DNA of 64,000 nt. It comes from Candidatus Enterousia sp. GTDB lineage: Bacteria > Pseudomonadota > Alphaproteobacteria > Rs-D84. Shown piece after piece: positions 3,200 to 58,645 of this stretch (its first letter is position 1; every line of letters starts with the position of its first letter). The DNA lies in the NCBI GenBank assembly GCA_045613445.1, contig JAZLAZ010000020.1, forward strand, positions 10,433-74,432, given 5' to 3'. A model generated the notes under the pieces. It saw nothing but the letters and a program-made list of their open reading frames with translations, did no database searches and was not told the DNA's origin. The position numbers and the translations under genes were made by a program.

Positions 3200-3232
3200 A
3201 AAAAAAGACCCGTATGTGCGGGTCTTTTTATT
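3200..3232 (+). terminator. Rho-independent terminator after rplQ
   Basis: AGACCCG-TATGTG-CGGGTCT stem-loop followed by TTTTTATTT. Confidence 0.8.
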
Positions 3233-3305
3233 TGTGATTGTTGAAAAACTGCTTTTATTATTTATGTCAATGTGATAAAATTAAATAAATTGGAAGGGAT
3301 ATTTT

Positions 3306-6300
3306 ATGAAAAAGGTACTATTTTTATCATTGGCATTGGTTTCTGTATTGTTTGATTCTTCTGCGTTTGCAGCGGCGGCGCGTCGCGGTCGTGCAACATC
3401 GGGAACAACAGGGACGGCGGCGACTGCATCTGCGCCAAAGACAACTGCTGCACGTGCTGCGACTAATTCTCGGACTGCGCCACGCACTGGGGCGACATCT
3501 GGGACAGCTGGACGTACGACTGCTGCGCGCAGTGCAACACCTACAACGGCCAAGGCACCAACCGTGGCTGCGCGCGCAGCAACAACGCAAAAGGTTGTTG
3601 GTACTGGGACCAAGGTTGCAGGGGCTGCAAAAAATATAGTGGTCAATGAAGAATGTCAGGCAAAGTATGAAGGTTGTATGGATTCTTTCTGTATGCTGGA
3701 TAACGAAAGTGGTGGCAGATGTATTTGTAGTGATAAAAATGCAGAATTGGATGCGATTTTTGCAGAAATTGAAAAGTTGGACGAACAATCGTATCAAATG
3801 GCAACGCTGGGGGTTGAAAAACTGGAAATGGGTGCGGATGCAGATGCGGCAATCGCAGCAGCAAGCAGTGTTGTGAATTCAATAAAAAACGGTGATACAG
3901 CGGATGGGAAAAAGAAGGCTAGGAAAGCGCTTGATTTAAGTATGTGGGATGCGACGGCAGATTTTGCAGAGGAAGAAGATATTTTTGCAGTTGCGTCTGA
4001 TCCAAATTCATTAGATGGCAAAGAAGGCGATGCGTTGCATGTGGCTGCTGCTGCATTATGTAAAGCACAAATTCCAGAATGTGCCAATGATATCAATATG
4101 CTACAGATGATGTATGGTCAACGCATTAAATCTGACTGTGCAGCATATGAAAATGTTTTGAAACAAAAGAAAACACAAAGTGCACAAAAGTTACAGGCTG
4201 CGGAACGTGCATTGCGTGAAACTGCATTGGAACAGTATCAAAATGCAAATAAATATGACTTGGGACAGTGTACAATAAAATTCAAAGAATGTATGCAGAC
4301 AACAGCAGGTTGTGGCAGTGATTTTTCAAATTGTGCGTCTGTTTCTGCGTTTGATTCAACAAATACCAGACGAAGTACATCAAAAAAGACTAAAAATTAT
4401 CAAATTGCTGGTGCTGTGTCTAATATTGAAATTTCTGCATCGACATATGATGCATTGATGGCCAAGAAACCATTATGTGAAACTGTCACAAAACAGTGCG
4501 CCAAGGTTGCAAGTCAGGTATGGGATACTTTCTTAAAAGAAGTCGCACCACAGTTAAAATCTGCCGAAATCATCGCAGAAGATAATGCCAGACAGGATTG
4601 TATCGGTAATATATCGTCATGTTTTCAAAAAGCATGTAAAGATACAATTGATCCAAAAGATCCAGATGGGTCATATGATATGTGCTTGTCAAGACCAGAA
4701 GCTATGCTGAATCTGTGTAAGGTTCCATTGAATGCATGTGGAATTGATGCCAGTTCTGCGTCCGCAGCGCAAAAATCTGATATATGGGATTTTGTAACAG
4801 CCAGACTTGCTGCAATGCGTGTGGATTCTTGTACAACAGAAGTTAAAGAATGTCTGCAGGCAGAAGATAGATGTGGCAAAGATTATTCAAATTGTATCGG
4901 ATTGGATACAGATGCGATAATAAGAATGTGTCCATATGATAAGTTGGTTGGTTGTCAAAAGGTTTATGGCGAAGAAGAAATCCGTGGTGATGCTGTATAC
5001 GAAGAATTGGCAAGAATAGCACAGGGGATTATGCTAAATATTGATAATGAAATGATTGCACAGTGTCAAAAGGCTGTTGATAATGCAATGATAAAAGTTT
5101 GTGGTGATACACAAAGTTGTACATCTTTGACAGTTGATGAAAATATTGGTGCAAGATCTTTAGAATATAAGATTTGTGAATATACCGCGGATGAAAATGG
5201 TATGTTGGATATAAATTATAATTTGTGTCGCACAGATGTTTCACAGATTCAAGATAGTGAATTGGGACGTTATTCATCTGCTCCGATAACTGTGGATAAT
5301 CCCGATACTGCAAATGACGAGGTCTTAGATTCTGTATATGCAAATAAGGGGGGTGAGATTACACCATTTGCAGGTGTGCTTGATGGAACAATATACTGGG
5401 AAAGTGTGAACTTTGATTCAGAAACAGGTAAATTGACAACATCCGATGAATATTTAAGTAAAGCAGAATATCAAAATATGACACAGAAGCAAAAAGATCG
5501 TGTTGCGTCTGAATTGAATGTTTTACAGCGCAATATTGATATGGCGATTCAATCAATTGAATCTGATCCAACAGTTCAATATTGTATGAGTGGTCGTACC
5601 GTGCCAGGAGTGCAAATAAAAGAAGAAGTTCAAAAGATTGGACGTGGCAAGGATGCTGCAAGATACCCAGAACTTACCAAGCAGATGCGTATGATTATTG
5701 CAAATCAGGCATTAAAAATAGCAAAAGATAATTACTATAAAAAATACGATGAATTAAACAATAAAATATTATCTGATTATGCAAAGATAGGTGAACGTAT
5801 TGCCGAAATCCAAGGTAAAAATTCCGAAGATGCACGTCGTGAATTGGCACGAATTGCGTGTGTTGAATTTGCAGAATCAGCCAGTTTGCCAAAAAGTGCT
5901 GAACCACCAAAGAATGCATTTGGTAAAATTGTATCTATGGTTGCAATTGCTGGTGCAGCGATAGGAATACCTTTTACTGGTGGTTTGTCTGGAGCTGCTT
6001 TGTTGGCTGCGACTATTGCGCCTGCGGCGGGTGCTGTTGCAATATCAGGCATTGGGCTTCTTGGTAATGCAGGTTCAAAATCTGCAAATGGTGATGATGT
6101 AATAAATCAAACACAGCTGACAGGTTCCAAGGCGTTGAATAACTGGAATTATAAGGAAACGATTACTTCAACATTTACATGGGATACATTACAGTGTCAA
6201 AAATGTGTAAGAACACAGACATGTAAAACAACCAAGAATCCAGTGTTTGGTAACAAATATTGTAAAGATTGGAATGATGCAGTTGAAACCTGTACTGAAA

Positions 6301-6311
6301 CTCAATTCTAA
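3306..6311 (+). CDS. Large secreted cysteine-rich protein, family member P1 (signal peptide, Ala/Arg/Thr tract, Cys modules, glycine zipper, CxxC tail)
   Basis: Signal peptide MKKVLFLSLALVSVLFDSSAFA. 'CQAKYEGCMDSFCMLDNESGGRCICS' starts at nt 3654. Modules are CTIKFKECMQTTAGCGSDFSNC and CTTEVKECLQAEDRCGKDYSNC. A Gly/Ala hydrophobic segment covers aa 872-924 (nt 5919-6077), and the tail is CQKCVRTQTCKT. Collinear with the ORF at 58670. Confidence 0.85.
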   Translation: MKKVLFLSLALVSVLFDSSAFAAAARRGRATSGTTGTAATASAPKTTAARAATNSRTAPRTGATSGTAGRTTAARSATPTTAKAPTVAARAATTQKVVGTGTKVAGAAKNIVVNEECQAKYEGCMDSFCMLDNESGGRCICSDKNAELDAIFAEIEKLDEQSYQMATLGVEKLEMGADADAAIAAASSVVNSIKNGDTADGKKKARKALDLSMWDATADFAEEEDIFAVASDPNSLDGKEGDALHVAAAALCKAQIPECANDINMLQMMYGQRIKSDCAAYENVLKQKKTQSAQKLQAAERALRETALEQYQNANKYDLGQCTIKFKECMQTTAGCGSDFSNCASVSAFDSTNTRRSTSKKTKNYQIAGAVSNIEISASTYDALMAKKPLCETVTKQCAKVASQVWDTFLKEVAPQLKSAEIIAEDNARQDCIGNISSCFQKACKDTIDPKDPDGSYDMCLSRPEAMLNLCKVPLNACGIDASSASAAQKSDIWDFVTARLAAMRVDSCTTEVKECLQAEDRCGKDYSNCIGLDTDAIIRMCPYDKLVGCQKVYGEEEIRGDAVYEELARIAQGIMLNIDNEMIAQCQKAVDNAMIKVCGDTQSCTSLTVDENIGARSLEYKICEYTADENGMLDINYNLCRTDVSQIQDSELGRYSSAPITVDNPDTANDEVLDSVYANKGGEITPFAGVLDGTIYWESVNFDSETGKLTTSDEYLSKAEYQNMTQKQKDRVASELNVLQRNIDMAIQSIESDPTVQYCMSGRTVPGVQIKEEVQKIGRGKDAARYPELTKQMRMIIANQALKIAKDNYYKKYDELNNKILSDYAKIGERIAEIQGKNSEDARRELARIACVEFAESASLPKSAEPPKNAFGKIVSMVAIAGAAIGIPFTGGLSGAALLAATIAPAAGAVAISGIGLLGNAGSKSANGDDVINQTQLTGSKALNNWNYKETITSTFTWDTLQCQKCVRTQTCKTTKNPVFGNKYCKDWNDAVETCTETQF

Positions 6312-10268: not shown

Positions 10269-12431
10269 ATGTCTAGGATTTTGAAAGTGTGTGGATTATC
10301 TGTTTTGTCAGCAGCGGTTTGTTTGTTGAATGTTGCTGCAAATGCGGCAACAGGACGCGCAGCATATGAAAATGTGCGCACTGGTTCGTTCACAGGGAAT
10401 GCAACATCAACTGCTCGTATGCCCAGTATGCCGACTTTGCCATTGATTGCAGTTGGTAATATTTCGACAGATGTGCCATCAAACCCAACCGATGGCGAAC
10501 CTTCACATGATGATGGGAATAATGGCGATGAAAATGGTAATCCGCCGGGACCGGATTTGCCTCCGACGGTTACTGTGCATGAATGTCCAGATGGTGGCGT
10601 CAAGAATTCTTCGTATACAGTTGATAATTGTATGCGTGATGTTTTGGCGTGTATCAATAATGGCGCGTTACCAAATGGATTAAATGATATGTTTAATTCT
10701 GATTTGCGTGCGTCAATTATCAATGGAATGGGGTTGTGCTATAACCAGGTTGATAAATGCATAACAGATGTCAGAAGAAATTGTAGCCGTGTATATAGTT
10801 CACGTGCAGATGTTTGGATTGACTTTAATTCACGCAAGGTTCAACCAGAATATTACAGCTTTGTATTGCGTAAAACTGGTTTAACACCGCGTCAGGCTGA
10901 AAATACATGTCTGTTATTAGATAAAAATGTTTATGGTAAATCGTTTGCTGCTGTTGGTGGTGAAACAAAGGTTACTGGTGAATATGACCAAAAAATTGGC
11001 GCATATAACCAACAGTTAAATAATTCGTTGGTAAAAGATAATCCAATGGGGCCGTATGAAAATAGACATGGTTATGTTGATTCACAACGTGGATATTATG
11101 CGCGTTGGGATGCGACCGCAGCAGAATGTTTAATCCGTGTCGCTGCGTATAATAAGGATAAACAAATTTCAAATAGTTGGTTGTTCGGCACAATTGGTGA
11201 TGATAGGCCTGCAGAAGTGTGGAAAGCTGCTGGTGACTCGTTCACATGTAACAAAGACTTGTTTGGTTTTTCTTTATTAAAAGATACAGAAACTGTTGCA
11301 TTGATTGGTGTTGGTGGTGGTACTGTTTTGGGTGCTGGTATTGGTGCTGCGGCGGGTGCAGGTGTCGCAAATAAAAATGCTAAGGCAGGTGAAGGTTGTG
11401 ACAATAAGGTGTTTCGTAATGATATGTTAAAGACTTTGCAACAATCCACAAATATGGAAGTTTTAAGTCGATTCTTGTCAGAGAGTATTAATAAAGCAAG
11501 TTCTGAAATGTCGAAACAGGTTTGTGAAGAAATTTTGAGATTACCAGATATATACGATGACTATGATATGTTAGTTTCTTTGTGTGAAAAAGGTAATGTA
11601 CAGAATTTGGATGTGTATTCTGTTGTTTGTGAAGGGGGTAAAGTCGAAGATTGTTTGCGTCAGCAGATAACAGAGCTTGGCAAGATTGAGTCTTCAGAAA
11701 TTGATGCGACGTTGTCACAATTGAAACCATGTGTTACAACCATTGATGCGGCCAAAGGGCAGTATGTGATTAAGGGCGACGGTACATGTGGTGAAATTAT
11801 GGCAGATGCTGGGTTTGAAAAAAAGCAAATGGGCGATTGTATGTTTAAAAATCCAGATAAACAGGCACAAAAATCAAATCGCGAAGATGTTCTTTGTTTT
11901 AGTGAAGGCGAATGTGTTGATCATATCAAGGCGCGTGAAAGTTTGAATATAATGGCAACTGTTTTGCCAACAATACAGTTAGAAATGCCAAAAACAGAAT
12001 CTCGTGGTGCAACAATTGGTAAGGGTGCTGCGATTGGTGCGGCCGTTGGTGCTGGTGCTGGTGGTTTGGCAACTGCGATTACTGCGTTGGTTGAACATGA
12101 TAATATCAACTGTCGTGTTGGTGATGGTTTGACTCAAGTAGGATTGAACAAATCGTATTCAATAGATGGTTTGAAAGATTTGTATGTAAAATGGAAATTA
12201 AATCTGCCAGATACACAGGTTATTGGTGGTGGTACGACTGTGAAAGACAAATCATCATGGGAAGATGCGTGTAAGACATATGTGTCCGAAGAAGCGTGTG
12301 AATCAGCAGAGTTCTATTACAAGAATGCAGTTGGTGCATTGGAATGGGTATATTCTGCATGTGAATATGATTCAGCTGGTGAGACATGTGACCCAAATGC
12401 AACATTATTGAAATCGTATGATGTTAAATAA
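10269..12431 (+). CDS. Secreted cysteine-rich protein with two glycine-zipper segments (divergent family member P2)
   Basis: ATG 10269 is preceded by AGGAGAGG. Signal peptide MSRILKVCGLSVLSAAVCLLNVAANA. Cx6C pairs are CMRDVLAC and CYNQVDKCITDVRRNC. Zippers are VALIGVGGGTVLGAGIGAAAGAGVA and GATIGKGAAIGAAVGAGAGGLATAI. Confidence 0.75.
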   Translation: MSRILKVCGLSVLSAAVCLLNVAANAATGRAAYENVRTGSFTGNATSTARMPSMPTLPLIAVGNISTDVPSNPTDGEPSHDDGNNGDENGNPPGPDLPPTVTVHECPDGGVKNSSYTVDNCMRDVLACINNGALPNGLNDMFNSDLRASIINGMGLCYNQVDKCITDVRRNCSRVYSSRADVWIDFNSRKVQPEYYSFVLRKTGLTPRQAENTCLLLDKNVYGKSFAAVGGETKVTGEYDQKIGAYNQQLNNSLVKDNPMGPYENRHGYVDSQRGYYARWDATAAECLIRVAAYNKDKQISNSWLFGTIGDDRPAEVWKAAGDSFTCNKDLFGFSLLKDTETVALIGVGGGTVLGAGIGAAAGAGVANKNAKAGEGCDNKVFRNDMLKTLQQSTNMEVLSRFLSESINKASSEMSKQVCEEILRLPDIYDDYDMLVSLCEKGNVQNLDVYSVVCEGGKVEDCLRQQITELGKIESSEIDATLSQLKPCVTTIDAAKGQYVIKGDGTCGEIMADAGFEKKQMGDCMFKNPDKQAQKSNREDVLCFSEGECVDHIKARESLNIMATVLPTIQLEMPKTESRGATIGKGAAIGAAVGAGAGGLATAITALVEHDNINCRVGDGLTQVGLNKSYSIDGLKDLYVKWKLNLPDTQVIGGGTTVKDKSSWEDACKTYVSEEACESAEFYYKNAVGALEWVYSACEYDSAGETCDPNATLLKSYDVK

Positions 12432-16355: not shown

Positions 16356-17432
16356 TTAGTCAATCTTTACAGAAAATATTGTTTGTTGCTTTTCTGTATC
16401 CAATGGATGGTATTGAAATTGGACTGTTGCAAAATCTATGTTCTTCATATCAATACTGCGAATCGTTCGATTGTACATTGTGTGGTAATAGATAATCTTG
16501 TTTTTAAGGTCTGTTGCAATCGTCCATTGTGTTGCTGCAGGCATATCTGTTGGGGATTTCCCAACCGCGTATTCGACACCAGATGGAATATCAACGTTGT
16601 TCAAGATGTGAAATGCTTGTTCAACCGATTTTTCGCCTGTGTCTTGTTCCAGTGCAAATGTTTTTAAGAATGCTGCGCGAACAAATCGTGATGGTGGGGT
16701 AAAGTCGCCGGGTAATCCGCGCAGACCAGAACCAGAACCAAATGCGTGTAATGTAATTGGACCAAATTGTGTGGGGCCGGCAGTGCCTGGATGCAGATTT
16801 ACATAATTATTCAAATTTGTCATATGCCATGGAAATCCTGGAGAATTAGTCAGAACACCAATTTCGTTTTCATAAAAGTTTGGGCGGCCGTCAACTATTT
16901 CTAAGACAACTTGGCGACCATTTGGTTCTGTTATGCGCCAGTGTACAGTTGATGCGGTTGGATCAATGTTTATGATGCGAACATCGTTGATTGCGGCTTT
17001 GACCTGGTCAATGGTTGAAAATCGTGACAATATCCATGAAACAACTTGGAAATCTGCCAGTGATATATCTTTGCTTTTTTCATTGTATTCTTGGTATTCG
17101 CCATAGTTCGGGAAATAGAACAGGGCAGCCGATAAACCCGCTTCATTTGTGCCATCAACAACAAATTCTGGCTGTTCAACAGCGATTCCGGCATAACCAT
17201 ACAATGATATAAAGTTTAAACCGTCCATTGTTCCGTCTGGTAACAGTGATTGATTATGATGACCGCGTGGGACGATGGTGTACAGATTGTTCATTTCGGA
17301 TCCCGACCAATCAACAGTGCGTGCGACAACAGTTGCGTTGTCTTTTGATTTTAATGTTATGCCGGTGCATGCGCTGGCATTTTGTATTAGTGCGATACAG
17401 ATGCTTAGTGTTGCGATAAATAAATTTTTCAT
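16356..17432 (-). CDS. Exported choloylglycine hydrolase family protein (bile salt hydrolase / penicillin V acylase-type Ntn hydrolase)
   Basis: The signal peptide MKNLFIATLSICIALIQNASA is followed directly by the nucleophile Cys in 'CTGITLKSKDNATVVARTVDW'. A perfect AAGGAGG SD lies upstream of ATG 17432. Confidence 0.8.
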   Translation of the reverse strand: MKNLFIATLSICIALIQNASACTGITLKSKDNATVVARTVDWSGSEMNNLYTIVPRGHHNQSLLPDGTMDGLNFISLYGYAGIAVEQPEFVVDGTNEAGLSAALFYFPNYGEYQEYNEKSKDISLADFQVVSWILSRFSTIDQVKAAINDVRIINIDPTASTVHWRITEPNGRQVVLEIVDGRPNFYENEIGVLTNSPGFPWHMTNLNNYVNLHPGTAGPTQFGPITLHAFGSGSGLRGLPGDFTPPSRFVRAAFLKTFALEQDTGEKSVEQAFHILNNVDIPSGVEYAVGKSPTDMPAATQWTIATDLKNKIIYYHTMYNRTIRSIDMKNIDFATVQFQYHPLDTEKQQTIFSVKID

Positions 17433-23150: not shown

Positions 23151-23303
23151 CTGTTTTCTCCATCGCTGGCAGGTATCACACCCACACATATTTAATATAG
23201 TACAAATATACTGTTTTGTCAAGGTTGTGCGTAAAAGTTCCTAGACAAAAGGGTGACGTCTTGTGATATACTGAATACACAGAAAATAACCAAGGGGGTA
23301 ATT

Positions 23304-25243: not shown

Positions 25244-25353
25244 ACTTTTTACTCCCTTGTTTTATCATGTTATTTTGAAAATCGTCTTGCCTTGTGGGGG
25301 CTAAATGTGGCATAATTATAAGCATATTTATGACAGGAAGAAAAGAAGAAAAA

Positions 25354-42548: not shown

Positions 42549-44465
42549 TTATGCATCACATTTACCAGATTTGATAGATATGTCAACGCGGCGACATTTT
42601 GCGCGTTCTGCTGGTGTGCTATATTTGTCTGTTGGGGTGCATTCTGATTCTCCCTTGCTGATGATTCTGTAACCTGATTCTGGCAATTTGCCGTTTGATG
42701 TCCCGATCAGTACCCTGGCAACAGTTTGGGCGCGTTCTTTTGATAGTTTGTTATTGAAATCTGTTTTGCCTGTCCAGTCTGCGTGACCTGTGAATGTCAG
42801 ACATATATCTGAAAACAGACTTGAAGTTGCGTTTGGATATTGTTCAGCAATTTTCTCCCAGATGCTTGCAATCAGTTTTTCTTTGTTCGGATCAGTGATT
42901 GTGGATTGATTACTGTCAAAGAATGCGTCTGATGATATTGAAATAGTTGCGATTTCTTCTACTGCTTCTTCTTCCTCTTCTTCTGGGGGTGGCGGATTAT
43001 AAACTTTGCTTTTTATTAGTGTTGTATCAAGCGGGGTTGTGTCAACAGTCAAAGGTGTGATAGATGTCTTTTCGCATTTGCCGTTCTGTAATTGATATCC
43101 AAGCCTACATTTACATTCTGAAGCCACAGGCCTTGCGTTTTCAATACATTTACAAGTTTTATCATCAATCAGTCCAGTTAGTTTGCATTTACAATCGTTG
43201 CTGTTGGCGTCATATGTTGCAACATCGTCGTCGCATTTACATGTTGTATCATCATAGAAACGTTTCAATGGACATATGCATTGTGTGCCATTGGATGATT
43301 TTGTTGCATGGTTGATGCATGAACAGTCTGATGGATTTAATAAAGAATTGTTGGCTAAATTACATTTTTTTTGTATGCATACATCATTGACAAGTTCTTG
43401 GTTGGATTCACATGGAACACATGCACCGTCAGTGTATTGATGATTTTGTTTTTTGCAGTTACAATTTGGATGTGTTCCTGTGGCGTCATCGGGGCATTGT
43501 GGTGATGGCAAATTGTCTATTTCTGTTTGGACTTCTTGGAATGCCTGTTTTAATTTTGCGTATTTTGCATTTATTTTATCGGAATTTTCCTGTGGCCCTT
43601 TGGCGTTTATGGATAGGTTTGCAAGTAAACTGCCTGCTGCACCAACGCCTGCTGTAATTGCGCCTGTTTTCAGTTTTTTTGCGGTTTCTTCGCGTTGTGC
43701 TGCCCACATTTTTGCGTCTTTGCCGTCTGGATTTGACAGTGCGCGGGACAATGATGCATATGTCCCAGATGTAATGCCAGTTCCAACATCGTCATATAAA
43801 CCAGATGTCGCGCTGTCTAAAATAGTTTCTGATTCAATGCCTGGTTTTACCCCCAGTGCGTTTTTACGTGTTTTTAAATCGTTTGCCAATGCGACATATT
43901 CGCTGTACAGGTCAATCAGTTCATTGCCCCCAGGCAAGTCGACAGATGTTTTTCCACCAGAAACACGATTGTCACCGTATTCACATGTGAATGTTGCAAG
44001 GTATGCAGTCATTGCCTGTTCTGCATTGTTGTCCGCAGACTGTTCAGATAATGCAGATGCCAGTTGCATACCCCCAATACCGGTTGCACCAATACCGGCA
44101 GCACCTATCAATTTATTTGCAGTTGATTGTTCTTTGTTGCGCATTGCGTCTGCGTTTTCGCGCAATTCAGATATCTGTTGGTTCTGAGCTTCGTCAAGGG
44201 TCTGGGGTGTTTTACCTTTTTGGTTTTGTTGCGTGTTTGTTATTGAATGTTCTGCCAACATTTTATTACGCATTTCTTGTAATTTATTATATTCTTTATT
44301 TTTTAATTTATCTTTGTATTCATCTAAAATAGATTGTGATTGTGTTTCAAAAATTTCCCATGCCTGTTCAATTGTTGATGCATTTGTAAATGGATTGTTT
44401 TCAGCTGCTGCAAATGCAGGTAATGTTAAAATTGTCAGTAAAGATATTACATATAATGTTTTCAT
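42549..44465 (-). CDS. Secreted Cys-repeat protein with a C-terminal OmpA-like peptidoglycan-binding domain (P3; last gene of the four-gene operon)
   Basis: Signal peptide MKTLYVISLLTILTLPAFA. Glycine zippers LIGAAGIGATGIGGM and GAITAGVGAAGSLLA. About 10 CxC/Cx2C repeats (CNCKK, CSCINH, CICPLK, CKCDDD, CKCKL, CKCIEN, CKCRLGYQLQNGKCEK). Poly-Glu. 'FTGHADWTGKTDFNNKLSKERAQTVARVL...CRRVDISI' is OmpA_C. Confidence 0.8.
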   Translation of the reverse strand: MKTLYVISLLTILTLPAFAAAENNPFTNASTIEQAWEIFETQSQSILDEYKDKLKNKEYNKLQEMRNKMLAEHSITNTQQNQKGKTPQTLDEAQNQQISELRENADAMRNKEQSTANKLIGAAGIGATGIGGMQLASALSEQSADNNAEQAMTAYLATFTCEYGDNRVSGGKTSVDLPGGNELIDLYSEYVALANDLKTRKNALGVKPGIESETILDSATSGLYDDVGTGITSGTYASLSRALSNPDGKDAKMWAAQREETAKKLKTGAITAGVGAAGSLLANLSINAKGPQENSDKINAKYAKLKQAFQEVQTEIDNLPSPQCPDDATGTHPNCNCKKQNHQYTDGACVPCESNQELVNDVCIQKKCNLANNSLLNPSDCSCINHATKSSNGTQCICPLKRFYDDTTCKCDDDVATYDANSNDCKCKLTGLIDDKTCKCIENARPVASECKCRLGYQLQNGKCEKTSITPLTVDTTPLDTTLIKSKVYNPPPPEEEEEEAVEEIATISISSDAFFDSNQSTITDPNKEKLIASIWEKIAEQYPNATSSLFSDICLTFTGHADWTGKTDFNNKLSKERAQTVARVLIGTSNGKLPESGYRIISKGESECTPTDKYSTPAERAKCRRVDISIKSGKCDA

Positions 44466-45859
44466 TATTGTTCGTTGTTCAATGTTTTTAATTTTTCATC
44501 CAACAAGGATTTTAATTGTTCTAATTTTTTTGTTGCTTGGTTCAGGTTTTCGGTACTGGCAACACAACCATCATTTTCATCCCAGAAATAGTTATTTCTG
44601 CAGTCGCATTTATTTTGTTTTTCTTGCCATTTGCCATTACCGTCTTTTTCACATAATTTTTTTGATGTTTCAAAGTTTGGTTCTATGCATTTTGTATAAT
44701 ATACCAGTGGTATATTCTGTCGTGTGCATCGATGTTTGTATGTGTCGGGTTGTGTGCCATTTTTACAAATGGCTATTTGCCAATTGCCTTGGACGCATAT
44801 GGCAGCCTCTGCGTTTGGGTGTTGATTTAAGAATTGTTGTTTGTCTTGCTTACATGCGTCTTCATCGCCACATGTATCGGTGTCTGTTGGTTGTATTGTT
44901 GTTTGGTCGATACATTTGCCGGTGTCATTGACTGTTTGGCTGTCTTGGCATTTAACAGATTTTTTTGATACACATTTGTTTTGTGTACTGTCTAAGAAAT
45001 GCGTGTCTTTGCATGTTTCTATTTTACATACTTTTTTATCGCCCTGACATTCATAATATGCCGCACTTGCGTTCAGGGCAGTGCATTTTTTTTCATCCCT
45101 TTGTAATTCGATACATTTATGATTTGATAATTTATACCCACATTTGCATGATTTTGCATGACAAACAACATCATTGCCCACCTTGACATACTTGGCGGTT
45201 TTTGCATTTTCTGATGTACAATTATCACCAACCTTTAGTTCGCATCCTGTATAGTACACAACGGTTTCGCCATTGCGTATACATGTGGCACGATTCTGTG
45301 GTTTATAGGGTTCAACACAGCCTGTGACATGAAGAACATTATTGATACAAACCGCACCAGAAATTTTGTTTTGATTTGTTTTCAGGAAATCAAATGTTGC
45401 TGTTTTAGAACACTTGTCATCTGGGCCGCATGTATCAGTTACAGTTGATTCAACTGTTGCTACTTTTTCTGCTTCTGTTACTGTGGATACGACCGCATCG
45501 TTTGTTGCAGGTGGCAGTTGCCACGCAGGAATTTCATTTTGTGTGGCACGACTTGCGGCTGCAAAGTTAAAACTTGATTTTGAATTGTTGTTATATAAGA
45601 GGTTGCAATATTCTGTGGCAGCAGCATCAAGTTCTTGTTGTGATATGCCTGATTTCAGTCCGTTTGTACATCCTAACATACCCGAATATTTTGTTGTTTC
45701 ATCCCCGTTTATTGTTACCTTGGAACAGTGTAGTTCGCCACCACCGTTGCAGAATCTTGATGTGGGGCTTTCTGGTAAATTGTCCAGAATTTTCGCGCCA
45801 AGTGCGGGCAGGGCGGATAATACAGATGTTATAAAAATGCCGATAATTCTGCGATTCAT
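44465..45859 (-). CDS. Secreted Cys-rich protein with an internal ~65-aa duplication (P4)
   Basis: Signal peptide MNRRIIGIFITSVLSALPALGA. Repeats are DTCGPDDKC...VVYYTGCE (nt 45239-45439) and DTCGDEDAC...LVYYTKCIE (nt 44684-44881). 'CKCGYKLSNHKCIE'. The stop overlaps the P3 start (TAATG). Confidence 0.75.
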   Translation of the reverse strand: MNRRIIGIFITSVLSALPALGAKILDNLPESPTSRFCNGGGELHCSKVTINGDETTKYSGMLGCTNGLKSGISQQELDAAATEYCNLLYNNNSKSSFNFAAASRATQNEIPAWQLPPATNDAVVSTVTEAEKVATVESTVTDTCGPDDKCSKTATFDFLKTNQNKISGAVCINNVLHVTGCVEPYKPQNRATCIRNGETVVYYTGCELKVGDNCTSENAKTAKYVKVGNDVVCHAKSCKCGYKLSNHKCIELQRDEKKCTALNASAAYYECQGDKKVCKIETCKDTHFLDSTQNKCVSKKSVKCQDSQTVNDTGKCIDQTTIQPTDTDTCGDEDACKQDKQQFLNQHPNAEAAICVQGNWQIAICKNGTQPDTYKHRCTRQNIPLVYYTKCIEPNFETSKKLCEKDGNGKWQEKQNKCDCRNNYFWDENDGCVASTENLNQATKKLEQLKSLLDEKLKTLNNEQ

Positions 45860-45925: not shown

Positions 45926-47188
45926 TTAGTTGTCTGATTCATTGCGACGCGCGTTTCTGTTTGTTTCGCGCGCTGCTTGTTTGTTTGCGCGATCTATTTT
46001 CTTTTGATCGTCAATACAGCCACTTTCTTCGTCAAATGATTTTGTACCTTTGCATTTGCAGTTGTTTATTGCTTTTTGCCATGTGCCACCGGTGGTTGTG
46101 CATAATTCTTCGCCCAGGGCGCGCTCTGCCTTGGCGCGGTCGGTTGCACGATCAATCGCACCGGATGTTAGTGCGCCAGCCGCCATACCGACGCCTGCAC
46201 CCAATGCTGCAGATGATGCAGATGTTTGGGCGCGTGTTAAACGAAATGCGTTTTCCATAAATGTTGTAATGTCAACACCAAACCAGTTTTGTGTGCAATC
46301 AAATGTTGAACCGGCATATGCTTTCTTAGATGCGTATAATGTGTTGTCTTCACCAGCATAGAAATTTACAGTATAAACACAATCTAGCGATCGTTCGTCA
46401 AACATTGCGCCCAATCGATTACATGTGTCGCGCATGGCGTCACGTAATTCGTATAAACGCTGTTCATCGCGTGCGATGGCTTTTTCTGCGTTGCCACGCA
46501 GGTTGCCGAATACCTCCATCGCGCGGGATGACAAACCGCTGTCTTGCTGTTTGCAATTTGTTGCAATCTTTGCGCATTTTTGTATCGCTTTGTCACCAGC
46601 GGATTTGCCAAGGCAGTTTGTGAATTTTTGACCACATTCTGTTATTATGCAGTTATTGTATTCGTTCCCACAGTCAATAACAGATGTGTATTGTGACAAT
46701 TTGGCGTTCATGTCACGGTCAGCCTTGATTTCAGTGCTGAATAATCTGTATTCTTCGCCAGTGCATTGTGTGTCGCGACGACATAAGTCCATTTTGTTGC
46801 CCCATGCGGTGTCTGTGTCGCCAGAACATTGACCAAAGTCGTTCCCGCATTTCGATTTTATGCATGCGCGCAATTTTTGGTCACAATCATTTATGCCAGA
46901 TTTCTGGGTGGACTTAGTCTTTTGTGCCGCTGTCTCGCGGGCGGATTGTGCATTTAATGCAGCACGCTGTTTGCGAATTTTGTCTGCCAATGCATCGTCG
47001 TTTGCTGTGTTTGCAGCAGAATTTGTTGCGCCCAATACTTCATCAAACTGAGAAGTTTTCATTTCTATATTATATTCAGATGATGCCGCATGTGCGTTTG
47101 TGCACAGTAATGCACATACTGTAACCAGACCGCCAAGAAACAACGATGTTATTGTTTGTTTATTAAATTTTGATGAATTTTTTATCAT
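45926..47188 (-). CDS. Secreted Cys-rich protein with a glycine zipper (P5)
   Basis: Signal peptide ...LVTVCALLCTNAHA. Modules CDQKLRACIKSKCGNDFGQC and CGNEYNNCIITECGQKFTNC. Zipper AALGAGVGMAAGALTSGAI. Tail CTTTGGTWQKAINNCKCKGTKSFDEESGC. Confidence 0.75.
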   Translation of the reverse strand: MIKNSSKFNKQTITSLFLGGLVTVCALLCTNAHAASSEYNIEMKTSQFDEVLGATNSAANTANDDALADKIRKQRAALNAQSARETAAQKTKSTQKSGINDCDQKLRACIKSKCGNDFGQCSGDTDTAWGNKMDLCRRDTQCTGEEYRLFSTEIKADRDMNAKLSQYTSVIDCGNEYNNCIITECGQKFTNCLGKSAGDKAIQKCAKIATNCKQQDSGLSSRAMEVFGNLRGNAEKAIARDEQRLYELRDAMRDTCNRLGAMFDERSLDCVYTVNFYAGEDNTLYASKKAYAGSTFDCTQNWFGVDITTFMENAFRLTRAQTSASSAALGAGVGMAAGALTSGAIDRATDRAKAERALGEELCTTTGGTWQKAINNCKCKGTKSFDEESGCIDDQKKIDRANKQAARETNRNARRNESDN

Positions 47189-47208: not shown

Positions 47209-48066
47209 TTATCGTAATGTGTTGCATGCGATCTTGTGGAATTGGCATAACAGACCAGCAGAAACAAGTTCTGTGTTGTTTTCGCATTGATCTGGCATAT
47301 TGTTTGTGCATACTGTTTCGACGCATTTGTCGTATTCAGAATTGTTTTCACAACCTGTGCGTGTGTCAGATAATTTTGTCGCACGGGAATTTTGATATGC
47401 AGTGATAATTTGTGTCAAAATATTGTCTGTGTTTTTTATCGCATTGTCACGTTCAGACAGTAATGTAATGCGTATATCAGACATGAATTCGTCGCATCCA
47501 GTTGATTGAACGCCACATGCAGAAAAGAATTTGTCAAAGTTTGTATTTTCTTCACAATTTCTGTAATCGGCGTTGCATGCTTTTTCTGCAATTACGCAGG
47601 CTGTAATTTCTGATTCACATTCTGATTTTGTGTGTGTTTTTTTTGCATTTGCCTGTAATTTTGTCATTTGGGCAGATATACCAGCTGCAGTACAAGACTG
47701 TTCAATCAAATTATCGTATGTAGCAGTTACATCATCAGGTGTACAACCTGCAACCTTGGCAATGCATTGTTTTGTAGCCCAAACATATCTTTCGCCAGGA
47801 TCGTTTGGCGCTTTCTTTAATTCGTTCGCAGAAATATTATATTTTGCGGATGTGCCTGTTGATACAGAACGCATATTATTTTTTTGCGGTGCGCCAGCCC
47901 CAGATGTGCCACAGTACTGACAGCGCGCAGCCGGATTTGACGATATATTTATCGCACATACAGAATCCAAACATCTGGTCAGATTTGCGCGTGAACAGGT
48001 CGTCGCAGCATCTGCAATGTGACAGGTTAGTATAACAATTGGTAAAAATAGTAGATGTGCTTTCAT
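47209..48066 (-). CDS. Secreted Cys-rich protein (P6; first gene of the operon)
   Basis: Signal peptide MKAHLLFLPIVILTCHIADA. 'CSRANLTRCLDSVCAINISSNPAARCQYC' is a knot variant. Module CESEITACVIAEKACNADYRNC. Confidence 0.75.
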   Translation of the reverse strand: MKAHLLFLPIVILTCHIADAATTCSRANLTRCLDSVCAINISSNPAARCQYCGTSGAGAPQKNNMRSVSTGTSAKYNISANELKKAPNDPGERYVWATKQCIAKVAGCTPDDVTATYDNLIEQSCTAAGISAQMTKLQANAKKTHTKSECESEITACVIAEKACNADYRNCEENTNFDKFFSACGVQSTGCDEFMSDIRITLLSERDNAIKNTDNILTQIITAYQNSRATKLSDTRTGCENNSEYDKCVETVCTNNMPDQCENNTELVSAGLLCQFHKIACNTLR

Positions 48067-53792: not shown

Positions 53793-56015
53793 TTATTGTC
53801 GGCAGTATCCCCATTTTGTATTTGCGGATGTTTCTGTATAAAATTCTGATAACAGTTTATCTTTATTGCCGTCTTCGTATGCGGTGCTGACCCATGTGCC
53901 ACCCAAACGTTCACATTCACGTGCCAACTGATTTCCCAAGCCATTGCGTATTTCGTCCATAACAACATTGATATCTTGTAATACGGTGTGTGGTAATGCG
54001 TCGTCGCGTTTGGATGGTCGTATGCATGCATCCGCAGCATAGTTGGCCATTTTGTAATACAGACTGCCTGTGTAATCCAATGGGCATGTAAGTTCTTCTA
54101 TATCGTTCAATGTGGTTGTGCCACCTGTGCAGTAATAACCATCGGGACATTTTATGCATTGACCGGGTGCCACATAGTAAAAACCTGGGTTACAAGATAT
54201 GTAGGTTCGTTTGCAAAGTGTTGTATATTTTGTGTTTTTTGAAGCAATGATAGATGCAGTTGCTTTTTCGCGGTTGCATGTAGGGTTTGATACATATTCT
54301 TGGGCCCCTGGATTATATACACGACAGCCATATGGATATGAATGTAATGTGTCTGTTCCAGGAACAGCGCATAATTCTTTGGCATAGTTTTGCAATGTGC
54401 TTAGACACTGTTGAGCAATTTGTTGTTCGATAATATTTCCCATTGTGTTTACCAAATCTTCTAGACCAACTGTGCCACCGCCGTACAAGTTACTACATGT
54501 GTCCATTTTTTCGCGACACATTGCTTCGGATAATTCCAAACGTGATCCCAGTAATAATGCTTCGTCTGTGTTGCTAAAATCTTTCAAAGATTTGTTTTGT
54601 TCGTCATAACATTGATTGACGACATTTAAGCATTCATCTTTGACCTGACGGATTTTATTTTGCTGGCCTTGATGAATTTCTGTGATTGCTTGGCGCAAAA
54701 ATTCATCCCACACATTGTCTGCAATGTCGCGACATGTGTCCAGTCCACGTTTGGCATAATCACGCATGTTGTTCAATCTGTCAACCAGCAGACGATTTGT
54801 TTGATTCGTCAATAAATCGCCAGATAAAGATGTCTGGGAATCCAATTGAAAAAAGTTCGCAGTATATATCGGTTCGCCAGTTTCATAATTCAAATATCGG
54901 CCTGTAACATCTAAACAGTGTACATAGTCTGTTCCACACGCGGCATTTGATGTGATGTCTTTACGGACCTGGGCGATACATTCGTGTATGGATGAAGAAT
55001 TATGGGCATTATAATTTTCCAGACGTAAATCGCCCATTGTGTACTCTGTGTCACGAATCGTTGCGTTTGCTGCAATCAATTGTTTGTCTAATGTGTTTAT
55101 CAACATTGAACAATCGTTTTCAATATACATTCCATATGCTGTTACAACCATTGTTTGGTTTGCACTATCCGGACAACTGGATGCAACCATTTCAGAACAT
55201 TGGGCGTGTACCGCATTATACAAAGATTCACCAGACAAGTTAGCGATATTTGTTCCGCCCGCCAGATTCGTTGTCGACCATATTGCATTTATGTCACCAG
55301 CGATATCAAGTGTACCCTGGGTGGATAATGATTCTTTTTTTGTTTTTGATAAAACAGCACTTATTCCAGATAGTTGCTTGGCACTGTCTGATTTGTCTTT
55401 TGTTTGTGATTGTGATGTTTCGCCCGCGGTTGCAGAAAGCATTGATTGTACTTCTTTGGCAGACTTATCAATAACAGCCAGATTTAATGATTTGAAATCT
55501 TCCAGTTGATTTGCAGCCTGTGATAATGCGCGTTCGCGTGATTGGATTTCTGTCAGACGCGATGAACAATAACATCTGCGATATGTGTCATTGGCAGTAC
55601 CACAGAATTGATCCATGCATGTAAAATATGCATCACGACATGTTGTATACCTGTCACCCATCTGGGTCGAGATATCAGAAGGTGTTATTGTCGCGCGATT
55701 GGTAATTGTTTTCGTATTGCGTATAACGGTGTTGCGTGGTGATGTATTTTTAGATTGCGTAGAACGTGCAATGTTTGATTTTGTGTTCCGTGCAGTTGTA
55801 TTTGTTATGGTGCGATTTGCACGCATAGAAACTGTATTGCGCTGTGAAGCATTGTTGCGGTTTTTAATATTTTTTTCAATAGCAGTGTTTTGGGCAGTAC
55901 GCGCAGGATTTATGCTGGATGTATTTCGTATAATTGTTTTTTTATCACGAACAGCAGCGTTGGCAACGCCAACACTGATAAGTAGCGCAACAAGAAGTAT
56001 TATTTTCTTCTTCAT
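53793..56015 (-). CDS. Large secreted cysteine-rich protein (P7)
   Basis: ATG 56015 (AAGGGG upstream). Signal peptide MKKKIILLVALLISVGVANA. An Arg/Asn/Thr tract (QRNT, ARNT, PRNT, IRNT). Knot 'CRDAYFTCMDQFCGTANDTYRRCYCS'. 'ACGTDYVHC'. Tail 'CERLGGTW...WGYCRQ'. Confidence 0.8.
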   Translation of the reverse strand: MKKKIILLVALLISVGVANAAVRDKKTIIRNTSSINPARTAQNTAIEKNIKNRNNASQRNTVSMRANRTITNTTARNTKSNIARSTQSKNTSPRNTVIRNTKTITNRATITPSDISTQMGDRYTTCRDAYFTCMDQFCGTANDTYRRCYCSSRLTEIQSRERALSQAANQLEDFKSLNLAVIDKSAKEVQSMLSATAGETSQSQTKDKSDSAKQLSGISAVLSKTKKESLSTQGTLDIAGDINAIWSTTNLAGGTNIANLSGESLYNAVHAQCSEMVASSCPDSANQTMVVTAYGMYIENDCSMLINTLDKQLIAANATIRDTEYTMGDLRLENYNAHNSSSIHECIAQVRKDITSNAACGTDYVHCLDVTGRYLNYETGEPIYTANFFQLDSQTSLSGDLLTNQTNRLLVDRLNNMRDYAKRGLDTCRDIADNVWDEFLRQAITEIHQGQQNKIRQVKDECLNVVNQCYDEQNKSLKDFSNTDEALLLGSRLELSEAMCREKMDTCSNLYGGGTVGLEDLVNTMGNIIEQQIAQQCLSTLQNYAKELCAVPGTDTLHSYPYGCRVYNPGAQEYVSNPTCNREKATASIIASKNTKYTTLCKRTYISCNPGFYYVAPGQCIKCPDGYYCTGGTTTLNDIEELTCPLDYTGSLYYKMANYAADACIRPSKRDDALPHTVLQDINVVMDEIRNGLGNQLARECERLGGTWVSTAYEDGNKDKLLSEFYTETSANTKWGYCRQ

Positions 56016-56497: not shown

Positions 56498-58645
56498 ATG
56501 AATTTAAGATTTCTTACAACGTTGTTTGTCTTGTTCCCAGGGATGGTTTTTGGCGCGGTGCGTACAGATGCTGCACGTATTGGTGTGCAACGCGTATCTG
56601 CAGCGGGGGCGCGAATGCCCAGTGGTACATCTGTAAAGGTAAAGGCTGTGGCTGATGTGGCGTCTGAAACCGAGGGTGTTGTTGTCGGTAGTGAAGATTC
56701 TGTTGTCGATGATGTTGTTTTGCCAGATGAACCAGGTGGTATAGGCAATACCAATGATGAAACGAATACTGCGAATTGTCGTGATGCATATCGGACGTGT
56801 ATGGATGAATTTTGCTTATTAGATGAATCCGAAGGTTACAGATGTGCATGTTCTTCAAATATAGAATCTTCAAAATCTTTGATTCAAGAAATTCAAAAAA
56901 TCCAAGAAGAAGCGGATAAATTATATACCGAAGGCGTTGAACGTGAAAACTTGGGGGCTAAAGCCAGACTGGTGTTCGGTGAAAGTGAGGCTGCTAAGAA
57001 AAGTTCCCGTGCATCTGGTTTAAGTTTTTCAGAATGGATAAGTGCGGATTCCGATGTTGATGAATTGGATGCTGATTATGATATTGGTGATAATTTGTAT
57101 GCAATGGCGTCTGAATATTGCGCTGTGGAATTAGAAAATTGTGGTGCCAAAGCAGAGATGGAAGAAATGCTGTATTCGCGTCAGATTGTGTCTGATTGCA
57201 AGGCGTTTAATTTGTATTTGGCAGATCAAAAAACAAATGCGTTGGCGAATAAACGTACTGCGGAATCTGCTGTGCGTCAGGCCAGACTGGCAATGTTGGA
57301 TACTACAAATAAATACAACCGTGGCGAATGTTTGTTAGCGTATCGTGCGTGCGTTGCAGATAAAGGGGGGTGTGGTACAAACTTTGAAAACTGTTTGGAT
57401 GCAGAATTACTGGCGCGTCGTGCAAATGCATGCGAAGGGGTTTTGGATCAATGTATGGCGGTCAGAAAGGATGTTTTGCAAGATTGGGAAGCCGAATCGG
57501 AATCGATATTAGCTGATGCAGAAAAGTATGCAGATAAATATCGTCGTCAGACATGTTTGGCGCAAATACAGGTTTGCTTGGAAGATGGCTGTTCGACATC
57601 AACAAACTCTGCGTGTTTAACAGATGTCAATGTTGCCGCAGGTGTTTGTCCAATTATTGATGAATGTAATGAAATTATCCCAGGATTGAAAACCGTTGTA
57701 AATGACAAGTTGGGTTATTTGCGTACTCAGTTCTGTCAGAATGATATTGACGCGTGTTTGCGCGACAGATGTGGTGAAAACTTTACGGCGCCAGAATGTG
57801 TTGGAAAAACACCAATGGAAATTGTAGAATTGTGCCCACAAAATATGTTCCCATCATGTAAAAATGAAACGCAGTATGATGTTATTGTGTCGGCTGCTGT
57901 GTTGCAGATGGATTATCAAATGATGCAGGGCTGTGTGAACTATTTCAGTGAACAGTTGGGGCGCACATGTGGAACAGATATGGCGTGTTTGGCATCTGAT
58001 TCGACCGTTGCTGCATTAACTGAAATTCCAGAAGATGAACAGGGAATGATTGATTTGCGCAAGACTGTTATTGAAAATTCAAAGGTTGCAGTTGCAGAAT
58101 TCTTTAAGCAGTTTGAACAGGATACAACGGTTGCTGCGTGTCAAGATGCAGAAAAACCAGCAGGTCGTAACAGCCTGGGGACAAGTATCTTTAATACAGC
58201 GAAACTGATTGCGGAAATTGGTGCTGAAAATCGTGCGATGCGTGAACTGGAAACCAAGATTGCAGAACTGTCACGTCAGCAAGATTTAGAGGAAGCTGAA
58301 AAGAATTGTTTGAATACTTACAAGGTTGAGACACCAAATAAATCGGACAAGAATTATAGTTATATCAGAAGTGTATCGTTTGAGCCAAGTTTGCGTAACT
58401 GTCATGTGTGCCGTATGCAACAGGTTTGTGAAACAGGCGGTGAATCCAAGGCGGCATCTGCATTAAAGGCTGCATCTGGTGGATTGACGGCGGGCGCATC
58501 TGCAGGTACAATGGTCAGCCCAGGTTGGGGGACCGCCATCGGTGGTGTTGTTGGTGCTGTCGGTATGGGTGTTATGGGTGCAATGTCTGGTGGTGAAAAA
58601 GAATTCTGTCAACAGATTGAGTCTTGTGAAGATATCAATATGTAA
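56498..58645 (+). CDS. Large secreted cysteine-rich protein (P8)
   Basis: Signal peptide MNLRFLTTLFVLFPGMVFGA. Knot 'CRDAYRTCMDEFCLLDESEGYRCACS'. Modules CLLAYRACVADKGGCGTNFENC and CQNDIDACLRDRCGENFTAPEC. 'CHVCRMQQVCET', then the zipper GLTAGASAGTMVSPGWGTAIGGVVGAVGMGVMGAMSGG, ending in 'CQQIESCEDINM'. Confidence 0.85.
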   Translation: MNLRFLTTLFVLFPGMVFGAVRTDAARIGVQRVSAAGARMPSGTSVKVKAVADVASETEGVVVGSEDSVVDDVVLPDEPGGIGNTNDETNTANCRDAYRTCMDEFCLLDESEGYRCACSSNIESSKSLIQEIQKIQEEADKLYTEGVERENLGAKARLVFGESEAAKKSSRASGLSFSEWISADSDVDELDADYDIGDNLYAMASEYCAVELENCGAKAEMEEMLYSRQIVSDCKAFNLYLADQKTNALANKRTAESAVRQARLAMLDTTNKYNRGECLLAYRACVADKGGCGTNFENCLDAELLARRANACEGVLDQCMAVRKDVLQDWEAESESILADAEKYADKYRRQTCLAQIQVCLEDGCSTSTNSACLTDVNVAAGVCPIIDECNEIIPGLKTVVNDKLGYLRTQFCQNDIDACLRDRCGENFTAPECVGKTPMEIVELCPQNMFPSCKNETQYDVIVSAAVLQMDYQMMQGCVNYFSEQLGRTCGTDMACLASDSTVAALTEIPEDEQGMIDLRKTVIENSKVAVAEFFKQFEQDTTVAACQDAEKPAGRNSLGTSIFNTAKLIAEIGAENRAMRELETKIAELSRQQDLEEAEKNCLNTYKVETPNKSDKNYSYIRSVSFEPSLRNCHVCRMQQVCETGGESKAASALKAASGGLTAGASAGTMVSPGWGTAIGGVVGAVGMGVMGAMSGGEKEFCQQIESCEDINM

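Follow-up and report, generated by a model that had tools for sequence, protein, structure and literature searches.

What are the large, exported and cysteine-rich proteins that are encoded repeatedly in a 64,000-nucleotide stretch of Candidatus Enterousia sp. (contig JAZLAZ010000020.1 of assembly GCA_045613445.1, positions 10,433 to 74,432), and what do their cysteines do? In this stretch, which we call the window, an earlier note made from the letters alone had pointed out nine open reading frames (ORFs), which we designate as A (3306), B (10269), C (42549), D (44465), E (45926), F (47209), G (53793), H (56498) and I (58670). All nine are present and add up to 17,529 nt, that is, 27% of the window. 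We found that six of them are related to each other by sequence comparison and belong to no named family, and that three independent sequence statistics, namely the heptad spacing of the cysteines, the parity of their number and their loss in pairs, point to disulfides. The reading that we tentatively favour, plausible although short of probable, is that of a disulfide-stabilised, membrane-anchored and partly cross-linked envelope scaffold.

Regarding export, all nine proteins open with a Sec-type signal peptide (basic n-region, hydrophobic core and AxA-like cleavage site), as read from the translations and as the note had stated; examples are MKKVLFLSLALVSVLFDSSAFA/AA in A and MKTLYVISLLTILTLPAFA/AA in C. 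The twin-arginine motif S/T-R-R-x-F-L-K is absent from the n-region of all nine signal peptides, none of the nine proteins contains a lipobox, and the PF03797 beta-barrel translocator, which is present in the neighbouring gene 30934-34236, is absent from all of them. The unusual richness in cysteine was also borne out, with 3.6-7.3% per protein and 4.56% pooled against 0.88% pooled in 19 other proteins of the window. Since the other exported proteins of the window are poor in cysteine (0.32% in SLT, 0.20% in the SurA-like protein and 0.09-0.49% in three autotransporter-like proteins), this richness is specific to these proteins and does not reflect a proteome-wide habit. As a separate observation, two further Cys-rich ORFs, unlisted earlier, were seen in the window: ORF 20-1336, with 14 Cys in its C-terminal half and a start probably upstream of the window, and ORF 53026-53730, which encodes an exported protein of 234 aa with 9 Cys and adjoins G in 8/8 loci found.

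The nine had been taken for a single family, and here the comparisons by BLASTP, profile hidden Markov model (HMM) and hhalign led to a narrower grouping in which A, G, H, I, F and E are related and B, C and D remain outside. The A-type alignment and HMM comprised 67 sequences, that is, A with its three paralogs in the window (I, H and G) and 63 homologs from databases. The family profiles for hhalign were built from the orthologs in 78 loci, the best 78 of 535 matching stretches in GTDB species genomes, nearly all of them metagenome-assembled genomes (MAGs) of gut or rumen alphaproteobacteria. BLASTP from A reached I (2e-116), H (5e-44) and G (1e-20), gave marginal local matches to E and F and found none to B, C or D, while the 67-sequence HMM run against the 192 ORFs of the window matched A, I, G and H only. 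With an HMM of the 30-aa module, E (0.0014) and F (0.046) ranked next after A, I, G and H; B was not significant, and C and D were absent. In hhalign, the pairs A-I, A-H and A-G scored 99.5-100%, A-E 76%, A-F 69% and E-F 90%, and B, C and D were matched only via the signal peptide or the Gly zipper.

The membership of F has its strongest basis in the positions of its cysteines. F, which the first reading had under-called, resembles the knot at its N-terminus (CSRANLTRCLDSVC...CQYC), and the 20 cysteines of its mature form are collinear, one to one, with the first 20 of A, H and I at nearly identical spacing. The gaps in the knot are 8, 5, 12, 3 in F vs 7, 5, 10, 2 in A, H and I, then 7, 17 vs 7, 19, then 7, 7, 7; later, a gap of 7 is followed by 9, 5, 8, 13, 7 in F vs 7, 5, 8, 11, 6 in H. 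Furthermore, a lack of conservation of the Cys columns in orthologs had been named as a finding that would speak against the family, and the opposite was observed: the cysteines are the most conserved positions, and 26 of the 35 invariant columns of the 67-sequence alignment are Cys. Judged by sequence, this is a six-member superfamily with long forms A, I, H and G and short forms F, a minimal core, and E, which consists of two units and an anchor.

We could not relate this superfamily to any named one. Pfam and NCBIfam gave no family for A, B, D, E, F, H and I, nor for ten diverse representatives, and among the nine, matches were confined to C (OmpA) and G (TNFR/ELAPOR-like, below threshold). 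Searches of PDB sequences with phmmer and with profiles had best E-values of 0.54 and 0.59. Foldseek, run with AlphaFold2 (AF2) models of moderate confidence, gave best E-values of 1.8 (A) and 2.8 (F) against PDB and of 4.5 (F) against BFVD. All these searches being negative, the earlier judgement that the architecture lies outside the named families stands. A description of the family was not found in the literature on Enterousia, Rs-D84 and Cys-rich alphaproteobacterial proteins either; a preprint on cysteine-rich repeats and gene transfer proved to be unrelated. Homologs are numerous, with 1255 for A, 729 for F and 906 for E in a set of 5.8 billion proteins, and an exhaustive profile search of 1.84 billion representatives returned 1046 clusters at E<=1e-3. 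Wherever the source gives a name, the homolog is called "hypothetical protein", and the organisms named are Alphaproteobacteria MAGs without exception. By these comparisons the family and its predicted fold are new and lineage-specific, being seen in Ca. Enterousia-type alphaproteobacteria. Two contigs with an Enterousia-type rpoA-A or A/E/F order, L021 (CAVGNU010000007.1) and L040 (CAZPLT010000001.1), stand under 'Bacteroides fragilis'/'Muribaculaceae' bins and are probably mis-binned or mislabelled.

Gene A (3306..6311, + strand; 1001 aa, 38 Cys) is the archetype of the long form. Its Sec signal peptide, assigned from sequence (3306..3371), is followed by a basic, Ala/Thr/Arg-rich low-complexity region (aa 23-112; 3372..3641) that varies between orthologs and is predicted to be disordered, with an AF2 predicted local distance difference test score (pLDDT) <50. 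Then comes a five-Cys knot, C-x6-CMDxFC-x9-CxCS (aa 117-142; 3654..3731), whose cysteines and MD-F core are invariant in the 67-sequence alignment and which is among the best-conserved stretches between A orthologs. This knot had been described for A, G, H and I, and the four sequences quoted for it are all there, although its spacing is FC-x9-CxCS and not x7/8. Downstream of it, a three-Cys element C252-x6-C259-x18-C278 lies at a helix-turn-helix (4059..4139), which makes 8 Cys with the knot included. Three six-Cys elements occupy the following part of the protein: unit 1 (aa 322-398; 4269..4499), an antiparallel hairpin ladder (aa 432-478; 4599..4739) and unit 2 (aa 509-550; 4830..4955). Further conserved cysteines (587, 599, 605, 624 and 641) are found in a mixed alpha/beta region (5064..5228). 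Towards the end there is a Gly/Ala-rich, glycine-zipper-like hydrophobic segment of ~50 aa (5919..6089), conserved in composition and variable in sequence, and a beta-rich five-Cys tail (6102..6308) with CxxCx5CKT and a conserved TQF end. The tail motif CxxCx5-7C[KE]T was found, as claimed, in three members, namely A, H and I. Gly/Ala hydrophobic segments had been attributed to most members; we see them in A, B (two), C (two), E and H, but not in D, F, G and I.

The AF2 model of A (pLDDT 61) has the disordered basic region at aa 16-112, long helices from ~115 to 600, a mixed part at 600-780, a long helical hairpin at 788-858, an unmodelled Gly/Ala part at 868-931 and a small beta-rich Cys tail at 933-1000. 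The model of F is all-alpha and reaches pLDDT 86-94 across aa 145-285. Both models are mostly helical, and their cysteines lie on helices or at helix-turn-helix junctions. The promoter and ribosome-binding site of A are predicted from consensus scans only: a promoter-like TTGTGA-18-TATTAT (3232-3261, +) and a ribosome-binding site GGAAGGGA before the ATG at 3306 (+). The same scan gave a terminator-like hairpin with a 12-bp stem (3202-3229, +), which closes the upstream unit of rpoA and an unscanned ORF, presumed to be rplQ.

The repeated motif of these proteins had been proposed to be a self-contained 22-aa module with four cysteines. The five sequences quoted for it are all present, and the pattern as first written has 6 sites; loosened (second gap x3-7, C[GN]), it has 7 sites vs 0.0 expected in 2000 shuffles. 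However, the second cysteine of the motif, C329, disappears along with C391, a residue beyond its limits, and the motif is therefore only the first two-thirds of a larger structural unit, a six-Cys hairpin; in unit 1 it makes up the first 22 aa. Unit 1 is laid out as a helix C322-x6-C329, a tip loop C336-GxDFxx-C343 and a return helix C391-x6-C398, with predicted pairs 322-398, 329-391 and 336-343. For unit 2 the predicted pairs are 509-550, 516-542 and 523-530, and for the ladder 444-460, 439-471 and 432-478. Thus, the repeating unit would appear from the sequence to be a hairpin with two rungs and a tip loop, C-G-x-D-F-x-x-C (C-x6-C), that is closed.

The first statistic concerns spacing. 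Adjacent cysteines are separated by gaps of 7 in A 11 times vs 1.1 expected, and 10 times in I, 8 in H, 6 in F, 5 in E and 5 in G (all p<0.001), an enrichment of roughly tenfold; C-x6-C occurs twice in B (not significant), never in C and once in D. Cysteines seven apart on predicted helices would lie on one face of the helix. Such heptad spacing along helices is, to our knowledge, not a usual geometry of metal clusters, which counts against a role in metal binding.

The second statistic is parity: where exported proteins form disulfides, a bias towards even numbers of Cys is the accepted mark of this in genomes (PMC2823432). Of 65 A sequences, 61 contain 38 Cys, and all 64 F sequences contain 20, while in B the number ranges from 20 to 36 and is even in 41/41 sequences. 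The core of E has 15 Cys in 120/120 sequences and its tail 0-20, an even number in 119/120, so the total is odd in 119/120. An odd number is also found in C (13 of 15 orthologs, with 15-81 Cys) and in G (8 of 9). Parity stays constant while the counts vary, which suggests that cysteines are gained and lost two at a time and that E, C and G each keep one unpaired cysteine. For E and C this lone cysteine is probably C298 and C161 respectively, both beside a Gly zipper.

The third statistic is co-loss, for which we counted in a 389-sequence alignment how often two cysteines were missing together, the first alone and the second alone. The pairs 444/460 (19-0-0, in two sequence groups), 329/391 (10-0-0) and 523/530 (9-0-0) are lost only together. 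Looser figures were obtained for 432/478 (6-0-2), 516/542 (7-0-9, all 7 sequences without 516 being also without 542) and 624/641 (21-2-14). The pairs that co-loss defines in aa 432-478 nest as an antiparallel ladder, and the remaining pairings of the three six-Cys elements (439-471, 322-398, 336-343 and 509-550) are predicted by elimination. Whereas parity and co-loss are direct counts on the alignments, that the disulfides actually form is what we infer from them. The earlier proposal had been a disulfide-bonded or metal-binding envelope lattice: its disulfide part is backed by parity and co-loss, its metal part is disfavoured by the exact-pair losses and the absence of twin-arginine signals, and the lattice is still putative.

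Parity also bears on the membrane segment. The Gly/Ala segment was detected in 115 A orthologs, and in 104 of these an odd number of cysteines precedes it and an odd number follows it. If all cysteines are paired, one disulfide bridges the segment, and in that case both flanks would be in the same compartment and the segment would be a re-entrant hairpin or would not span the membrane.

The other members vary the scheme of A. I (58670..61159, +), its closest paralog, has the knot, the two six-Cys units and the ladder and is without the Gly/Ala segment; H (56498..58645, +) has 36 Cys and carries the segment at 58502-58603. G (53793..56015, -; the ORF is 53793-56069 and the probable start an internal ATG at 56015) is a divergent paralog that is without the Cys pairs 329/391, 444/460 and 523/530 and whose tail has TNFR/ELAPOR-like CxxC repeats, the Pfam match being sub-threshold. 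F (47209..48066, -; 285 aa) is the minimal member and is tractable for structure determination. E (45926..47188, -) has its two six-Cys units at 46763-46885 and 46553-46672, an invariant lone Cys298 in the motif AGxTFxCxxxWFG (46274-46315), a Gly zipper (46139-46231) and, after it, a hypervariable tail of 37-298 aa. CarboxypepD_reg-like domains (PF13715/PF13620) are seen in the variable tail of some E homologs, e.g. P0507 and P0535.

Judged by sequence, C is a different protein from the A family, and B is a third family. B (10269..12431, +) is not homologous to A and has Gly zippers at 11286-11378 and 12006-12104, the first of them preceded by AGdtFtCNkDLFGFSL (11229-11273). This AGxTFxC...FG motif beside a Gly zipper is common to B and E, whose hhalign score is 54%, and A is without it. 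C (42549..44465, -) combines Gly zippers, at least 8 CxC repeats with a period of about 13 residues (43074-43496) and, for peptidoglycan binding, an OmpA domain (42597-42923; PF00691, aa 515-623, 3.2e-8, 34.3 bits vs a cut-off of 27.2 bits). Just past its first Gly zipper it has a shorter ATFxC form of the motif (43971-44003), in which the lone Cys161 stands as ATFTC. D (44465..45859, -) is a repeat protein rich in cysteine (6.9% Cys) and has no relationship to A. In other genomes, C orthologs that are much longer (800-1500 aa; L013, L053, L070 and L045) contain D-like Cys repeats as their N-terminal part; in the window, the two are encoded by distinct genes with a one-base overlap, and both proteins have a signal peptide.

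From these observations, the envelope scaffold that we tentatively prefer would be built as follows, its membrane topology, intermolecular cross-links and structural role all being our deduction. A together with I, H, G, F and E would be Sec-exported, mainly alpha-helical proteins in which Cys ladders staple antiparallel helices intramolecularly. A and H would be held in the membrane by their C-terminal Gly/Ala-rich hydrophobic hairpin, and E, B and C may be held by their similar segments. The conserved unpaired cysteines of E, C and G could form intermolecular bonds, with the AGxTFxC motif of E and B and the ATFxC motif of C as candidate sites. Through its OmpA domain, C would tie this scaffold, built with B, C/D and E, to the peptidoglycan.

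Another explanation, possible but in our view rather unlikely, is a surface coat or adhesin family, in which disulfide-stapled stalks would show variable regions to the host, a partner cell or phage and duplication would diversify them. The rates of evolution are relevant here. When the window was compared with five closely related genomes (L001, L031, L051, L066 and L071), A showed 57-73% amino-acid identity and B 56-68%, where rpoA, rpsB and tsf showed 94-100% and rnhB ~80%. The ratios of nonsynonymous to synonymous substitution rates (dN/dS) were 0.17-0.30 for A, 0.24-0.33 for B, 0.01-0.06 for rpoA, rpsB and tsf, and 0.15-0.16 for rnhB. By these figures A and B are fast-evolving yet under purifying selection, and gene-wide positive selection, with a dN/dS of 0.17-0.33 for the two genes, was rejected. 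Besides this divergence, a coat or adhesin would suit the tandem A copies (at least two in 29 of the 78 loci) and the four paralogs in the window, the hypervariable tail of E with its occasional CarboxypepD_reg domain, the TNFR/ELAPOR-like Cys repeats at the end of G, the autotransporter-like neighbours, one of them with Pmp repeats, and the partner dependence that is frequent in small-genome bacteria (PMC12306168). Nevertheless, the whole-gene dN/dS of A is well under 1, and the changes along A spare its Cys-rich core: conservation extends over the knot, the Cys units and the helices between them, and the variable parts (the N-terminal basic region, an acidic loop at aa 176-250, aa 351-375, aa 626-750 and the Gly/Ala segment) are mostly disordered linkers. 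Furthermore, we recognised no outer-membrane route (no beta-barrel, lipobox, two-partner or type IX secretion signal), and the autotransporter-like proteins of the window avoid cysteine, as if folded disulfide-rich domains could hardly cross the outer membrane.

At synonymous sites A and B have diverged by 1.0-1.7 (dS), which exceeds the 0.17-0.59 of the flanking rpoA, rpsB and tsf two- to sixfold. The excess could be due to codon-bias constraint on rpoA, rpsB and tsf, an explanation suggested by the intermediate dS of rnhB and DUF3419, or to the exchange of old alleles.

It might also be argued that these are nine independent Cys-rich proteins with no common function, whose clustering is accidental and whose motifs reflect a general tendency of exported proteins. 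This is consistent with B, C and D not being homologous to A and with the existence of other Cys-rich exported ORFs (20-1336 and 53026-53730). Gene order, however, makes it very unlikely, since adjacency is kept across dozens of species despite rearrangement. All nine genes are linked by synteny across Ca. Enterousia/Rs-D84 genomes. The usual order in related genomes is rpoA, DUF3419, A (1-3 copies, often 2-3 in tandem), B, C, E, F and an autotransporter-like gene, and a second conserved block consists of orf53026, G, H and I (for example among L001-L078). A and B are adjacent in 39 of the 50 loci that contain B, B and C in 19/26, C and E in 21/26, and E and F in all 28; F adjoins the autotransporter-like gene (48794-52480) in 20 of 22. 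Within the second block, adjacency holds in 8/8 loci for orf53026-G, 8/8 for G-H and 7/7 for H-I. In the window, rearrangement has divided the cluster, whose parts are now separated by rpsB-tsf and ~30 kb of other genes. The exported SLT, SurA-like and autotransporter-like proteins are, moreover, poor in cysteine, and the element composed of AGxTFxC and a Gly zipper is common to B and E. A cluster of ~17.5 kb that is kept across dozens of species in genomes of ~0.75-1.0 Mb would be of central importance for the architecture of the cell or for its contact with the surroundings.

The least probable explanation of all is that the cysteines stay reduced and serve, in the sulfide-rich anoxic gut, as a buffer or reserve of the periplasm by binding metals (Zn, Cu or Fe) or by carrying sulfur or polysulfide: the very high Cys content in a strict anaerobe (PMC12306168), the CxC and CxxC elements of knot and tail and the absence of a Dsb system from the small part of the genome that the window and the 78 loci cover would agree with it, but the cysteines are lost strictly in twos where metal sites would lose threes or fours, parity is kept while their counts vary, the knot spacing differs (CxC in A and CxxC in F), and no twin-arginine motif is present, so that export of a cofactor-loaded protein is unlikely.

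Returning to the envelope scaffold, several points weigh against it. The AF2 models are only moderate (pLDDT 61 for A and 69 for F; predicted template modelling scores of 0.42 and 0.34), and several of the co-loss pairs rest on one or two evolutionary events, mostly in the G clade. A surface or adhesin role would account equally well for the tandem duplication and the rapid divergence. Furthermore, it is not obvious how the cysteines would be oxidised. Ca. Enterousia (order Rs-D84) is uncultured, has genomes of ~0.75-1.0 Mb and lives by strictly anaerobic fermentation, lacking both the TCA cycle and a respiratory chain (PMC12306168), and therefore the usual DsbA/DsbB-quinone route is not obviously available. 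No DsbA, DsbB or thioredoxin homologs were found in the window and the 78 loci, which cover ~1.4 Mb and a small part of the genome. Anaerobic life had earlier been deduced from an nrdD gene. The literature supports this way of life, whereas nrdD itself did not turn up among the Pfam-scanned ORFs of the window, and the gene with an ATP cone and a Zn ribbon at 35526-36044 (Pfam scan) is NrdR. Polysulfide-driven oxidation under anoxia has been reported (PMC11921322), and polysulfide is one candidate oxidant of these cysteines.

Parity and co-loss indicate envelope disulfides in an obligate anaerobe without a respiratory chain. A stronger version of the scaffold, which we consider doubtful, is a chlamydia-like disulfide-cross-linked lattice that evolved independently in a strictly anaerobic, non-respiring gut alphaproteobacterium with a genome of ~0.9 Mb, with a previously unseen heptad-laddered alpha-hairpin fold and an OmpA-domain partner that ties it to the peptidoglycan. 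Such a lattice, if true, would imply oxidative folding independent of respiratory quinones, e.g. polysulfide-driven (PMC11921322).

The window itself is chromosomal DNA of low GC content (~38%) from an uncultured gut alphaproteobacterium, and its genes include rpoA, rpsB, tsf, rnhB, pgk, eno, tpiA, grpE and ssb. Protein A is identical to an NCBI protein from a contig of 142.5 kb. The nearest loci come from MAGs named Alphaproteobacteria bacterium, Candidatus Enterousia sp. or uncultured Rickettsiales, from the guts of cattle, sheep, deer, yak, chicken, horse and human, and one closed genome among the related loci (OZ007020.1) measures 958,618 bp. According to the literature, Ca. Enterousia/Rs-D84 turns up repeatedly in metagenomes from the gut and rumen of humans, birds and farm animals (PMC12306168). 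Three autotransporter or autotransporter-like genes, all for very large Cys-poor proteins, are found in the window: one at 30934-34236 with Chlamydia Pmp repeats and a PF03797 barrel (both by Pfam), another at 25294-30513, called from sequence only with no PF03797 or Pmp match in Pfam, and the conserved neighbour of F at 48794-52480, called in the same way and with weak ankyrin-like matches near its N-terminus. Other genes include a choloylglycine (bile-salt) hydrolase family gene at 16356-17432, which fits the gut habitat, an N6/N4 DNA methylase with a RAMA domain at 34274-35461 and a subtilase (S8) with a long C-terminal extension at 21318-23222.

How do these proteins compare with known systems? 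C matches OmpA-family models, those of YiaD and PA1041 among them (NCBIfam 6e-14 to 2e-16, below the cut-offs), and the GxxxG-rich Gly/Ala segments of A, B, C, E and H recall the Rickettsia 17-kDa antigen and other glycine-zipper proteins. These anchor families differ, however, from the present proteins, which are without a lipobox and among which A, E and H gave no match to glycine-zipper models and B only one of 0.028 to NF053611, far below the cut-off; nor do they have a counterpart to the Cys-rich parts.

The Helicobacter Hcp proteins are an expanded exported alpha/alpha-repeat family of a host-associated bacterium, in which close Cys pairs staple helix pairs. Unlike the Hcp family (mentioned in PMC3046158), the nine proteins and the ten representatives have no Pfam match to the Sel1/SLR repeat; repeats of 34-36 aa are absent, the present proteins are of much greater size and have membrane anchors, and the predicted rungs join i/i+7 positions of two long antiparallel helices. 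The structural principle itself is that of the twin-CxnC arrangement, a helix-loop-helix with two parallel disulfide rungs at helical periodicity (PMC12114033). The mitochondrial twin-Cx9C proteins of the CHCH type and the twin-Cx3C small Tim proteins share this rung principle with the six-Cys hairpin, but the spacing is x6 here, the tip loop would have an extra disulfide, and we are dealing with Sec-exported bacterial proteins of 285-1000 aa for which no homology to them was detected. In the present family, which has no Pfam, NCBIfam or PDB relative, disulfide rungs would be stacked at heptad spacing on helical hairpins.

Another comparison is with the chlamydial envelope: the proteins described here are, like OmcB and OmcA, Sec-exported, contain ~4-15% Cys, belong to a small-genome bacterium and co-occur with a Pmp-repeat autotransporter (here 30934-34236). 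Nevertheless, OmcB is beta-rich and OmcA a lipoprotein, whereas the present proteins are predicted to be alpha-helical with heptad-spaced cysteines; there is no sequence similarity, and no Pfam match to Chlam_OMP6 or Chlam_OMP3 at E<0.1 in the nine proteins or the ten representatives. The chlamydial envelope proteins are disulfide cross-linked (PMC6752827), and the complex that they form differs in its setting too, because Ca. Enterousia retains MreB, RodA, MrdA and peptidoglycan genes (PMC12306168). The resemblance to the chlamydial outer membrane complex would be one of functional convergence and not of homology. What is of a known kind is the general phenomenon, in which a host-associated bacterium with a small genome carries an enlarged repertoire of exported proteins rich in disulfides.

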